This document shows, one piece after another, positions 29,101 through 35,100 of a DNA stretch of 64,000 bases. This DNA comes from Escherichia coli (GTDB taxonomy: Bacteria > Pseudomonadota > Gammaproteobacteria > Enterobacterales > Enterobacteriaceae): NCBI RefSeq assembly GCF_016903815.1, contig NZ_CP069973.1. One strand, written 5' to 3'. A program made the position numbers. Each line of letters begins with the position of its first letter. Position 1 is the first letter of the stretch.

Positions 29101-32100
29101 TCTACAAAGCGAAAAATCGCTAACCGACTTCTTTGCGCCATTACGCTCTGTCCCGTCGTTGCAGATTGGTCGCCTGGAAGTCATCGATGCTCGTTTGCAA
29201 GGTCCGGACTGGGCGGTGACCGACCTCGATCTCAGCTTGCGCAACATGACCTTCAGTAAAGATGACTGGCAGACACAGGAAGGCAAACTGTCGATGAATG
29301 CCAGCGAGTTCATTTATGGTTCGCTGCATTTATTTGACCCGATTATAAACGCGGAATTTTCCCCGCAGGGCGTAGCGCTGCGCCAGTTCACCAGCCGCTG
29401 GGAAGGGGGCATGGTTAGAACGTCAGGGAACTGGCTGCGTGACGGGAAAACGTTGATCCTTGATGATGCGGCAATTGCCGGGCTGGAATATACCTTGCCG
29501 AAAAACTGGCAACAGTTGTGGATGGAAACGACACCCGGCTGGTTAAACAGCCTGCAACTGAAGAGATTTAGCGCCAGCCGCAATCTGATCATTGATATCG
29601 ACCCTGACTTCCCGTGGCAGCTCACCGCGCTCGATGGTTACGGTGCCAACCTGACGCTGGTTACCGATCATAAATGGGGCGTCTGGAGTGGTTCGGCGAA
29701 TCTGAATGCCGCCGCCGCGACATTCAATCGTGTTGATGTTCGTCGCCCATCGCTGGCGCTGACCGCCAACAGCAGCACGGTGAATATCAGCGAACTGAGT
29801 GCATTTACTGAAAAAGGCATTCTGGAAGCCACCGCTAGTGTTTCACAAACGCCACAACGTCAGACCCATATCAGCCTGAATGGACGCGGTGTGCCGGTGA
29901 ATATTTTGCAACAGTGGGGATGGCCTGAATTACTGTTGACTGGCGACGGCAATATTCAGCTTACTGCCAGTGGCGATATTCAGGCCAATGTCCCGCTGAA
30001 ACCTACGGTTAGCGGGCAATTGCATGCCGTGAATGCCGCAAAGCAGCAAGTGACTCAAACCATGAATGCGGGCGTAGTTTCCAGTGGTGAAGTTACGTCG
30101 ACGGAGCCGGTGCAGTAAAAATAAGGACGCTAGCGGATATCAGCGCTAGCGTTCCCCGTTATTAGCGCAAAATTCCATACTCACTGCACAATAACCATTT
30201 CACCGGTTCATCTTCTTCTATCGCCGGAAAACGTCCTCCCGGCTCAAGAAAATAGTTATCGTGTTGGTCATCATTTACCATCGAAATTTCCCAGCCGAGA
30301 ACAAACGCTTTTTCCGCCCAGAAGCGATGATACAGACGCGGCGGCAGGCAAATGCCCTGCCCCGGCTTTAGCACCAGCGTTTCACCAGGTTTCATGGTAC
30401 GCCGCTGACCATCAACACTCACGGTAATGACTCGTTGATCATCACAGAGATTGGCTTCGTTGGCCCAGGCCAACTGCATGCATAAGTCTCCACCGCCCCG
30501 ATTGAGGATATCTTCCATTTTGTGGGTGTGAAAATGCCAGGGAGTCTGCTGATCTTGTTGGATCTGCAACATTTTCTCAGCATACGGTTTTGGATATGCC
30601 GCCGACCCCAGCGCGCCGTTGCGCATCGTTAGCAGTGTTAGTCCCGTTTGGTTGAAATCACCACGACCAAAATCGGTGATATCCCAACCGAGCTGTAAGT
30701 CGACCACTTCTTGCCAGTTATCCCGTTCCAGCTGCAGCCAGTCATCCACCGTAAAATAGGCGAACTCTGGCAAACAAACGCGGAAGGTCTGCGCAATGGC
30801 ATGTGCTTTATCAATAACATAATTAATTTGTGAACGTTTCATTGGCTTCTCCGTTGCGCATAGCAAGCCAGGCAGCGCCACGCATTCCGCTACTGTCGCC
30901 GTGCTGTGCTTTTACAATGGGAGTGGTGAATTGATCGGTGAAAACCAGTGGAGCAACTTCTGCGTTCAGAGCGGTGATAAGCAGTTCCACATTCGAAAGC
31001 CCGCCGCCGATCACAATCACGCCAGGGTCAACAACGTTAACGATGGTTGCCAGCGTGCGGGCAAGCTGTTGGCGAAAACGTGCCACCTGCTGCATGGCAC
31101 AAGCATCACCACGTTGTGCCAGGGTGACAATCGCCGCAGGAGTGAGCAAGTTACCAGTCATCTGTTGATAGCGTTCACTAAAACCGCTGCCGGAAACAAA
31201 CGACTCCACGCAGTTGTGTTTGCCGCAATAGCAACTGACTGATGGACCATCTTCCTGCTCCGTATAGCCTGGCAACGTGATATGACCGCATTCGGCAGCA
31301 TTTCCCCAGGCCCCTATAAACGGTCGTTGCTTGATGGCAATGCCACCGCCGCAGCCCGTACCAAGCGTAATACCAAATACCACGTCATAATCTTGCCCGG
31401 CACCGTCGCAAGCTTCTGATAGCGCGAAACAGTTACCATCATTGGCTATCACCACCGGTTGCCCAAGCAATTGCTGCAAATCAGCCTGTAACGCATGACC
31501 GTTAATCACCTGAATATTCGCGTTTTTAATCAGGCCAGTGAGTGGCGAGATACTGCCGGGTAAGGCGATCCCTGTCAGCATCGGTCGTTGAACGTCCCGC
31601 CTAATCTGCTCGATAAACGCCACAACGCATGAGACAAATTGTTGATATGTCGACTTTTGCGTCGGGCAGCGGTAACGGCGAATCTCCCAGCCATGCGCAT
31701 CCATGACGACGGCGGCGATTTTGGTCCCACCAATATCCAACCCCAGATAGTGCATATCTCGTTCCTTGTTGCGTAAAAGGCGGGTCACCCCGCCCTTCTG
31801 GCTTAGTACAGTGATGCTTTACCGAGCGAACCGAACAGTTTCATTTTGTGGCGAATGACTTCCCGCGCCGCGTTAATCGCATCCGGATAGATGACGTTCG
31901 GGTCCCACCAGCTCTCTTTAGCGAGAATTTCACGCACTTTCTGGAAATAGGCGTATTTCATATCGCTGGAGATATTGATTTTGCCGACGCCGAGCGTAAC
32001 TGATTCAGCAATCTCCGCGTCCGGGTTTGCCGAACCACCGTGTAGCACCAGCGGAATATCAATACGTCCGGCAATGTCGCGCAAAATGTCCATTTGCAGC

Positions 32101-35100
32101 TTCGGCTGCATCCCTTTTGGATAGATGCCATGCGCTGTACCAATCGCCACAGCCAGAGTGTCGGCACCTGTACGAGCAATAAAATCGGCGGCCTGCGCCG
32201 GATCTGTGTAGGTCACTTGTGAAACACCACCTTCTACCGACGTTCCTGTTTGTCCGATGGTTCCCAGTTCACCCTCAACCGACACTCCAACCGCGTGAGC
32301 GAGGCGAACCACTTCTGCGGTCAGCGCCACGTTTTCTTCATACGGCAGCAGCGAACCGTCGATCATTACTGAGGTAAATCCGCAGCGAATCGCACGCAAA
32401 ACATGCTCTACAGAGGCACCATGATCGAGGTGCAGTACAAACGGGACCGGACTACGCTGGGTAATTTCGCGAACGTGAGCGAAAAAGGCATCGCCCACAA
32501 AATCATGTTCGCTGGGATGGATGGCAATAATCGCCGGAGTATTTGTCGCTTCTGCTTCATCCACGACTGCGCGAAGGAAACAGTTATCCGCCACATTAAA
32601 TGCGCCAATGGCAAAGCCGTGCTGGCGGGTAGGTTGCAGTAATTCTTTCATCGAAACTAACATGTTAAATCTCCAGTTTCAGCGTGTAGTCCGCCCTGCC
32701 GGTGCGTTATTGCACTGGCATAAAGGCCATGACAGAAAATGAATCAGGCTTTGCCGATAGAGCCGCTCGCCTGTAAATACGGTGTAATCGCTTCTTCGAA
32801 GGCCAGTTCCATAGCTTTCAGCGCGTCCACCAGTTCAATGGATATATCGTGACAGAGGGTATGCAGGAGCGCGGATTTCCCCCGTTCAAAAATGGCCGCC
32901 CCCACGTTGATTTTTGCTACCCCCAGAGTCGTACAGAGCTGGAGCTGATCGAACGGCGTACCGCTACCACCATGTAATGCCAGAGGCACGCTCGAGCAGT
33001 GGAAAATCTCCGCCAGACGCTGAAAATCAATAGCAGGTACAACACCAGGCGCGTACATGCCGTGCGCCGTGCCTACCGAGACGGCCAGTAGATCAATGCC
33101 TGTCTGCGCGATAAACGCTTCCACATCAGTGGGTTGCGTCATCATGTCTGCATTGGCGGCCTGGTCGTAACGCGGCGCATCTGCCAGATGGCCCAGTTCG
33201 CCTTCAACGCAGAGCTGCGCGCTGGCGGCGAGTTCCACCACCGCCTTGGTCTGGCGCACGTTTTCCTCCAGGGGAAAAGCAGAAGCATCAATCATTAATC
33301 CGCTGAAACCAGCACGAAACGCCTGACGAATACAGTCCGGATTTTTGCCATGATCAAGCGCCAGAGTGACCGGTACTGAGGCAGATTCCGCGAGCGTTTT
33401 AACCACTGCCGCCGCGACGGGTGCAGGAAAATGCGCCAGATGCCCCTGATAGAGATTGAGAATGATTGGAGCGCGATTCTTCTCCGCCACGCGGATAGCT
33501 GCGCGAGCACTTTCCAGATTCATATAGTTGATCGCCAGCAAGGCGTAATGTTCATGCCAGGCTTTCATCACCATACTTTTCATATCGGCAAACATAGGGC
33601 CTCCGGTTATTCGAGGGTGAAAGTGATCTCTTCATCTTTCAGCTTTTGATCGCTCAGTTCGTCAAACTCTTCGTCGCGTTCCGTTACCGGTTTCTTCCAG
33701 AGTGAAAGCATCACGCCACAAATCACCGTGCCTATACCCAGCGCCAGGCAAAACAGCAGAGGATGGGTGAACAGAGGCACAACAAACATGCCGCCATGTG
33801 GAACCGGACTCTCCACGCCCCACACCATGATTAAGCCGCCCGCGACCGCCGATGCCACCACACAAGATCCCACTACTCGCAACAGGTCACGCGCGGCGAT
33901 CGGAATGACTCCTTCAGTGATCATGCAGATCCCCATCGGAAACGCGGCTTTCAGCGCCTCGCGCTCCGCACGGGTGTATTTATGGCGTGTCAGTAAGAAC
34001 GAAAGTGTGATGCCAAACGGAGGGATGATTGAGCCGACAAATTTCACGGCTTCTGGTCCGTAGACGCCACTGACCAGCAAGCCATCGGAAAACAGCGACA
34101 TGGTTTTGTTGACCGGACCACCGAAATCGAAGGTTGCCATCGCGCCAAGTATGGCCCCCATCAGGAAGCGCGATCCGCCCTGCATCGACTCGAGCAAATG
34201 AATCAGTGCTTCTTGTAACCAGGCGATGGGTTTACCAATCAGCGTCATCATTAACAGCCCACCGATAATGGTGCTTAATACCGGCAACACCATGATTGGC
34301 ATGAGTCCTTGCATCGACTGCGGCAGGCGAATATAGCGTTTAAGTAGCAAAATGGTGTAGCCCACCAGGAAACCACCCAACATACCGCCAATAAATCCGG
34401 TATGGATTTGCCCACAGAGAAAGCCGACAATCAGGCCCGGGGCAAATCCGGGACGATCGGCAATAGAATAGGCAATTGCCGCGCTAATCAGCGGCACAAT
34501 CAGCCCCATTCCCCAGCCGCCAATCTGATTAAGCATCCACGGGATTGTTCCTGTTTTTTCACCAACATCTGTACCGCCAAGAACTTGCCCCAACGCAATA
34601 CATATCCCGGCGGCCACAATAAGGGGTATCATCCACGAGATGCCGGTTAATAAATGTTTTTTAATTTCCTGTGAAACCGGAATTTTATTTTCTTTCATAT
34701 TAAGATCCCTCCAGTATAAGGATCATTTATTTCCCAGTGATTTTTCGACCTTTTCAAGAAATTGAACGGGCGATTTAATGACGATCTCTGTCTTTACTCG
34801 CACAATGCGTTTATTGGTAAAACGTTCTTCTCCTTTTATTTTCACATCCACAGCAAGAATCACGACGTCAGCAGCAGAGATCTCTGCCGCCTGTAATTCG
34901 TTTTCTGTACCAATGGTTCCCTGGGTTTCAACTTTAATGGTGTGGCCCAGTGCTTTTGCCCCTTTAATTAACTTTTCACGAGCAATATAGGTGTGAGCAA
35001 TACCCGCCGTGCAGGCGGCAACACAGACAATATTCATGATATACTCCCTGTTATTTAGTAGACATCGGATTGTGCATACTGACTAAAGAGATCAATGATT

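Follow-up and report, generated by a model that had tools for sequence, protein, structure and literature searches.

What sugar does an operon consume when it combines a fructose-type phosphotransferase system (PTS) with two class II aldolases, a ROK-family kinase and a lyxose-isomerase-type cupin? The question is raised by a 64,000-nucleotide stretch of Escherichia coli DNA (RefSeq assembly GCF_016903815.1, contig NZ_CP069973.1; hereafter the window), in which these four enzymes are encoded at 30162-33595 on the minus strand and had been predicted, from a reading of the sequence, to serve an undefined rare-ketose pathway. The open reading frame (ORF) map and full-length Pfam matches bear out this enzyme set, which corresponds to the last four genes (5-8) of an eight-gene cluster, 30162-37105 (-). 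The cluster is almost certainly the frz operon of extraintestinal and avian pathogenic E. coli (ExPEC and APEC), an accessory carbohydrate operon between yicH and yicI. The best overall explanation, which we consider probable, is that the region represents genes 5-8 of frz and participates in a PTS-fed route in which the paired aldolases would cleave a monophosphorylated ketose directly; the route taken by itself is put forward more tentatively, at somewhat less than an even chance.

According to the ORF map and the RefSeq context, the order of genes in the window is gltS, xanP, yicH, the eight-gene minus-strand cluster, yicI, yicJ and the tRNA for selenocysteine (tRNA-Sec, selC), which the operon adjoins. 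yicH ends at 30118 and yicI at 37400, enclosing a gap of 7281 bp. All eight ORFs of the operon receive Pfam assignments (activator, EIIA, EIIB, EIIC, two FBA_II aldolases, ROK kinase and cupin), and the PTS genes upstream of the enzymes share their orientation and are accompanied by a regulator of 517 amino acids (aa), as had been anticipated. The genes are as follows.

35552-37105 (-): frz gene 1, activator, 517 aa, with HTH_11, Mga HTH, two PRD and EIIB-like domains (Pfam)
35055-35525 (-): frz gene 2, PTS EIIA of the fructose/mannitol type (Pfam PTS_EIIA_2, E 1e-34)
34723-35037 (-): frz gene 3, PTS EIIB (Pfam PTS_IIB, E 6e-19)
33607-34698 (-): frz gene 4 (frz orf4), fructose-family EIIC permease (TIGR01427 PTS_IIC_fructo, 311 bits)
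32744-33595 (-): frz gene 5, class II aldolase no. 1, 283 aa (PF01116, E 1e-74)
31803-32663 (-): frz gene 6, class II aldolase no. 2, 286 aa (PF01116, E 8e-91)
30823-31755 (-): frz gene 7, ROK kinase, 310 aa, RefSeq start (PF00480 ROK, E 3e-74)
30162-30842 (-): frz gene 8, cupin, 226 aa, RefSeq start (PF07385 Lyx_isomer, E 1e-86)

With these starts the ROK gene shares 20 nt with the cupin gene; the longest ORF alternatives extend the cupin gene to 30881 and the ROK gene to 31788. The two aldolase genes do not share a reading frame.

The assignment to frz follows from the agreement of insertion site, region size and exact primer matches with the published locus. In APEC strain BEN2908, region GR27 runs from yicH to yicI, measures 7283 bp and contains the frz operon (2026 genome paper), compared with 7281 bp at the identical insertion site in the window. 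The diagnostic "frz orf4" primers printed in an APEC typing paper, which yield a 565 bp product, match exactly at 33990-34009 (+) and 34535-34554 (-), inside the EIIC gene, and span 565 bp; 100 shuffles gave no match. With site, size and diagnostic primer sites all shared, the cluster and the frz region of BEN2908 GR27 are the same locus. A full-length copy is found in 1601 of 5426 complete E. coli genomes (about 30%), and its DNA is 100% identical in many E. coli genomes. Its carriers within the species belong mainly to ExPEC and APEC lineages, and many other Enterobacterales possess it as well.

The abstract of Rouquet et al. from 2009 (J Bacteriol 191:4427) is said to list the frz products as three fructose-subfamily PTS subunits, an activator of the MgA family, two type II ketose-1,6-bisphosphate aldolases, a ROK kinase and a cupin. 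The locus and its gene set have been known since that year, and the additions made here are the division into core and accessory genes and the residue analysis. The idea of an undefined pathway therefore survives in part: the gene set is already described as the frz operon, while no substrate assignment for frz was found in the literature searched. Literature searches on the Streptococcus agalactiae Fru2 homologue and on the context of Z5688, a cupin gene of E. coli O157:H7, returned nothing useful for the frz substrate. On the biochemical side, published work defines phenotypes and lacks a substrate-level description. In a table of a 2021 APEC review, frz is placed among the "Unknown/not clearly known functions", and a 2026 genome paper calls it a carbohydrate metabolic operon only; reviews and later papers state that it promotes fitness and type 1 fimbriae expression, the published phenotypes being fitness under stress and an ON bias of the type 1 fimbriae switch. 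Typing schemes for APEC and ExPEC use the operon as a marker associated with virulence, it is linked to gut and serum fitness, and the identity of its sugar would explain the niche advantage of frz both for extraintestinal E. coli and for the plant-associated Enterobacterales that carry a six-gene core.

Which genes belong to that core can be read from their distribution. Orthologues of aldolase no. 1 are spread across Enterobacterales. A scan of one genome per species revealed 231 genomes with a relative; the best 80 loci were kept, and all eight proteins of the window served to annotate them. In every one of the 80 the aldolase genes lie side by side, the regulator is found in 78, and regulator, EIIA, EIIB and EIIC occur together in 76. 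The two distal enzymes behave quite differently: both ROK and cupin are present in 18 loci, the cupin only in 13, ROK only in 9 and neither in 40, giving totals of 27 for ROK and 31 for the cupin. These counts define the regulator, the PTS and the aldolase pair as the core, and ROK and the cupin as an optional module whose members are individually dispensable. Loci with neither gene occur in Pantoea, Erwinia and Pectobacterium. In the 13 cupin-only loci (Citrobacter and others), the cupin directly follows aldolase no. 2, and no ROK remnant was detected by tblastn. A metagenomic relative with 50% identity (contig L014) shows a further arrangement, in which the aldolase pair is followed first by the cupin and ROK genes and then, at the end of the cluster, by a gene for a type I phosphomannose isomerase, just as the manR-manP-manA operon of Bacillus subtilis ends. 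Immediately upstream of this frz-like cluster, L014:1-4470 holds a second PTS unit of the fructose type, made up of a regulator with PRD and EIIA domains, only one class II aldolase and EIIABC as a fused protein, so units of PTS and FBA_II aldolase also exist with one aldolase.

The two aldolases are 33% identical to each other and 32-34% identical to GatY and KbaY. Each has a full-length FBA_II domain with the Asp-His dyad, the E-x-E motif and three metal histidines, and the motifs LDHG, EGELG, GTAHG and LHGGS are found in both. Both were aligned with GatY, KbaY, YdjI and FbaA of E. coli K-12, and conservation was followed over 80 orthologues each: D81, H82, E131, E133, H178, H208, K228 and N230 (numbering of no. 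1) are invariant in the two families. The original prediction that both copies retain their metal and catalytic motifs is thereby upheld, and the metal site is intact in each, with the Asp-His dyad, E131, E133, H178 and H208 all kept. Elsewhere the copies part company. In no. 1 the N-terminal strand motif reads LNLYQGH and N230 is followed by NVGAA; the corresponding residues of no. 2 are IAIHPSE and NISSD, and GatY and KbaY have AGTPGT as their strand motif. Aldolase no. 1 carries a conserved loop signature, G-E-L-G-H-x-[AG]-D-A-x-x-Y, in which D139 and Y143 are invariant. In this loop, where the alignment is uncertain, KbaY E142 (FbaA E182) aligns to P141 of no. 1, which contains no Glu in the loop, and, with the same uncertainty, to G140 of no. 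2, where an invariant Glu, E144, stands four positions further on. Both enzymes appear to lack the canonical Glu of the GG-x-E-D loop at the aligned position; the active YdjI also deviates from this loop. A decaying pseudo-enzyme was considered for no. 1 and ruled out, given the conservation of its catalytic core and unusual loop in 80 orthologues.

A further difference concerns the C-terminal D-P-R motif, which GatY, KbaY and FbaA share with the five solved fructose-bisphosphate (FBP) aldolases that match best. In aldolase no. 2 it is replaced by an invariant D-P-N (N256), and in aldolase no. 1 the motif is absent; GatY and KbaY keep both D-P-R and E142, of which the frz aldolases lack the first and appear to lack the second. 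The motif is also absent from YdjI, a ketose-1-phosphate aldolase, and from the aldolase of the O157 island considered below. By residue count, the arginine of D-P-R is FbaA Arg331, described in the literature as the ligand of the distal (C6) phosphate. Because it is missing from both frz aldolases, the sequences suggest a monophosphate substrate, that is, that the pair may cleave the PTS product directly as a ketose-1-phosphate. Neither aldolase exceeds the NCBIfam equivalog cut-off for an FBP or tagatose-bisphosphate aldolase, and no Frz enzyme reaches an equivalog cut-off of any kind. Aldolase no. 2 passes NF006042 (PRK08185, "hypothetical protein"; 526 bits against a cut-off of 405) and also the generic cbbA subfamily, whereas no. 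1 scores 195 against the generic cbbA cut-off of 215.6 and passes no NCBIfam model.

The ROK kinase (310 aa) consists of the ROK domain alone, with no N-terminal HTH detected by Pfam, and conserves the motifs LDIGGT, ECGH and C-x-C-G-x-x-N-C-x-E associated with ATP and Zn. Its best model is the Mak fructokinase PRK09557, at 317 bits against a cut-off of 443. The cupin is a paralogue of E. coli O157 Z5688 and matches its structure, PDB 3KMH, with E 2e-65. Its residues H103-F-H105, K108, E110 and H172 have counterparts in the 3KMH alignment and stay conserved over 32 orthologues; cupin motifs 1 and 2, which supply His, His, Glu and His as metal ligands and a catalytic Lys, are defined in PMC8378251. 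The LyManIsomGneg model gives 272 bits against a cut-off of 350, which leaves the cupin below the equivalog level.

The regulator bears the RefSeq name "BglG family transcription antiterminator". Since its HTH domains are present and Pfam finds no CAT RNA-binding domain, the product name is probably misleading, and the architecture is probably that of a DNA-binding activator of the MtlR/LicR class. MtlR, LicR and ManR accompany PTS of the fructose or mannitol family, just as the frz protein, with its HTH, Mga, PRD and EIIB-like domains, lies beside a PTS. The frz regulator does not have the C-terminal EIIA-like domain of this class, and frz carries aldolases rather than only an isomerase. EIIC matches TIGR01427 PTS_IIC_fructo at 311 bits but stays below all equivalog cut-offs, and the MngA model ranks as the fourth-best NCBIfam match. 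The fructose PTS family also includes B. subtilis ManP, which converts mannose to mannose-6-phosphate, and MngA. The starting premise that Fru-family PTS deliver ketose-1-phosphates was consequently too general, and MngA is itself among the closer matches of the frz permease.

From these features a route may be proposed. The PRD/Mga-type activator would switch the operon on under control of PTS phosphorylation, exerted through its PRD and EIIB-like domains. The fructose-family EIIABC would then import and phosphorylate the sugar, most simply a ketose at C1, and the aldolase pair would act on this PTS product, cleaving a ketose-1-monophosphate as YdjI does and not a 1,6-bisphosphate. One expected product is dihydroxyacetone phosphate (DHAP), the other an aldehyde or aldose that carries no phosphate. 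Together, the Mak-like kinase and the isomerase related to Z5688 would form an optional free-sugar side branch with mannose/lyxose-fructose/xylulose chemistry, which might either salvage the unphosphorylated product or serve as a second entry for the sugar in its aldose form. That about half of the operons carry no kinase gene is a further point in favor of a monophosphate substrate.

Several considerations weigh against this route. Every mechanistic step is inferred, from gene content and residue patterns. The bisphosphate could come from a housekeeping kinase, as it does from PfkA in the gat pathway, and fructose-family PTS permeases do not always phosphorylate at C1. The missing distal-phosphate Arg is suggestive only, as other residues could bind a second phosphate, and aldolase no. 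1 aligns only weakly in its C-terminal part. In addition, cleavage of a hexulose 1-phosphate would yield glyceraldehyde, which is used by neither the ROK kinase nor a lyxose isomerase, so that the idea of product salvage either fails or needs a longer sugar. Finally, the phenotypes in Rouquet et al. 2009, stress fitness and the fimbriae phase switch, reportedly come without a defined sugar.

Two characterized or partly characterized systems are among the closest parallels. E. coli O157:H7 encodes Z5688 (ECs_5070; PDB 3KMH, 3MPB), a Lyx_isomer cupin that, as in frz, lies beside a class II aldolase, a kinase and a transporter. The aldolase of this island is 43% identical to frz aldolase no. 2 and 34% to no. 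1 and, like them, has no D-P-R. The island differs from frz in having an ABC importer instead of a PTS, a PfkB instead of a ROK kinase, one aldolase, another regulator and another site. As the O157 island repeats it, the combination of isomerase, kinase and FBA_II aldolase without the distal-phosphate Arg is a recurring design. The logic of isomerase, kinase and aldolase resembles that of the fucose and rhamnose pathways. In strain Sakai the island, with its ABC transporter, cupin, aldolase and kinase genes, extends over ECs_5067-ECs_5073 (L007:19700-26466) and is flanked by yjcS and phnP, a position that the als (D-allose) operon occupies in K-12. The second parallel is YdjI of K-12 (PDB 6OFU), the L-glycero-L-galacto-octuluronate-1-phosphate aldolase, which is about 32% identical to frz aldolase no. 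1 and shares with the frz aldolases the FBA fold and the absence of D-P-R; it also has no GG-x-E-D loop, which the frz aldolases appear to lack as well. It differs in being a single copy associated with a PfkB kinase and dehydrogenases and no PTS.

Two of the alternatives concern the pair of aldolases. The stronger, still only a possible reading and less probable than the route above, holds that they are two independent enzymes of different specificity (C3/C4 stereochemistry or chain length, for example), serving two related ketoses or, as the original prediction suggested, two entry routes that converge, one for the PTS sugar and one for a free sugar handled by the cupin and ROK. Each has a complete catalytic core, the two diverge strongly in substrate-distal regions, and enzymes for free sugars are indeed present in E. 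coli. The distribution, however, speaks against it: half of the operons do without the free-sugar enzymes, both aldolases are always kept, and the duplication is therefore not tied to a second entry route. Separable substrates also predict that one copy would have been lost somewhere, and no such loss is seen in 80 loci.

The other is a heteromeric aldolase in which no. 1 is a dependent partner of no. 2, like GatZ and KbaZ with GatY and KbaY, and would stabilize or tune the catalytic subunit instead of working as an aldolase in its own right; we judge this unlikely, slightly more so than two separate specificities. Besides being adjacent in 80/80 loci, the genes are unequal in their behavior: in this sample no. 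1 is seen only beside no. 2, while no. 2-like aldolases occur alone elsewhere (O157 ECs_5069 and the second cluster on L014). Aldolase no. 1 also diverges faster (its orthologues are 54-94% identical to the protein of the window, those of no. 2 77-100%), falls below the generic 215.6 cut-off at 195 bits and contains no Glu in its mobile loop. The GatY/GatZ and KbaY/KbaZ systems, seen in K-12 as gatYZ and kbaYZ, likewise place a class II aldolase in a PTS-linked operon with two co-operating proteins side by side. GatZ and KbaZ are annotated as putative chaperones and belong to a protein family other than the class II aldolases, whereas in frz the partner is itself a complete FBA_II paralogue that has catalytic residues. 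Against a dependent partner, aldolase no. 1 shows no variation in its metal ligands, its Asp-His dyad, K228 or N230, and its unusual loop is conserved as well, which is the pattern of an active enzyme and not of a scaffold. YdjI, which also has no GG-x-E-D loop, is active.

A more specific version of direct monophosphate cleavage can be formulated, although as an improbable conjecture. The aldolase pair might be a two-component unit, heteromeric or acting in two steps, that cleaves the monophosphorylated PTS product of a sugar new as a PTS substrate, possibly a higher-carbon ketose, to give DHAP and a free aldose with the configuration of mannose or lyxose. The optional cupin, the Mak-like kinase and sometimes a phosphomannose isomerase would then recover the aldose. 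If true, this would constitute a PTS-fed "aldolase-first" route, for which the standard E. coli sugar pathways contain no precedent.

Slightly more doubtful still is the proposal that frz is mainly a sensory or regulatory PTS, whose phosphorylation state and metabolites modulate other loci such as the fim switch, with only minor carbon flux through the enzymes. It would account for the published phenotypes, which are stress fitness and a bias of the fimbriae switch and not growth on a sugar. Yet a complete and strongly conserved catabolic set is maintained under purifying selection in many Enterobacterales, which points to a nutrient pathway, and the same set is found in plant-associated genera without type 1 fimbriae biology. 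That frz is a misannotated member of a standard pathway (galactitol/tagatose, N-acetylgalactosamine, sorbose or fructose) is very improbable, despite the 32-34% identity of its aldolases to GatY and KbaY and the fructose type of its EIIC, as the operon contains no GatZ/KbaZ, PfkB, FruK, deaminase or sorbose-1-phosphate reductase gene, its PTS is of the fructose type and not of the galactitol or mannose family, and equivalog cut-offs are missed widely. Membership in gat, aga, sor or fru was rejected on these grounds, in agreement with the original prediction that none of these pathways matches the set; the standard fru, gat and aga loci lie elsewhere in E. coli.

Direct cleavage of a monophosphorylated PTS product by the aldolase pair remains the preferred reading, and three non-coding features may bear on how the operon is expressed.

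37106-37399 (-): intergenic region between yicI and the frz regulator, the presumed frz promoter (ORF map)
32694-32723 (-): hairpin in the aldolase spacer 32664-32743 (RNAalifold covariation)
30127-30152 (-): terminator-like hairpin directly after the cupin stop, with a 9-pair stem, 6 of them GC pairs, followed by a T-rich tail, CCTTATTTTT

A sigma-70 scan found no site in 37106-37399, and over the operon as a whole it returned 6 sites against 10.6 expected, with no enrichment. Within the same region, past the stop codon of yicI, a hairpin resembling a terminator occupies 37210-37226. At the other end, the strong hairpin at 30127-30152 is the likely 3' end of the frz operon. The spacer between the aldolase genes varies little in length from genus to genus, with a median of 81 nt over the 80 loci (72-98 nt in 16 spacers). 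RNAalifold applied to 11 spacers from different Enterobacterales supports a hairpin of 9 pairs, 5 of which show changes on both sides; single-sequence folding of this hairpin is no better than shuffles (z -0.17). Support for the hairpin thus comes from the covariation between genera. As it has no U tract, it does not qualify as an intrinsic terminator; a role in mRNA processing or stability is possible, by which it would set how much of the upstream gene products is made relative to the downstream ones.

Several neighboring segments of the window were also recorded. Beyond the operon, tRNA-Sec (selC) at 41403-41497 is followed by an integrase at 41797-42981, a LacI-family regulator at 44833-45927 (-), a major facilitator superfamily (MFS) transporter at 46108-47466 and a glycosidase of family GH31 at 47475-49862. 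The segment 41403-49862 looks like a selC-associated carbohydrate island and is reminiscent of the AGI-3 island of strain BEN2908. In the low-GC island downstream of selC, a 593-aa ORF at 54707-56488 gives a weak match to PF16535 (SipB/IpaB translocator family of type III secretion; E 3.5e-10). At 57487-63972 (-), in a stretch whose G+C content of about 60% is far above the window average, lies an ORF of at least 2161 aa with about 19 Big_1/invasin-D3 Ig-like repeats, which is probably a giant invasin/intimin-like adhesin. At the opposite end of the window, positions 1-4000 have a low G+C of 0.37-0.41, compared with about 0.52 in neighboring core genes, which suggests another horizontally acquired segment.

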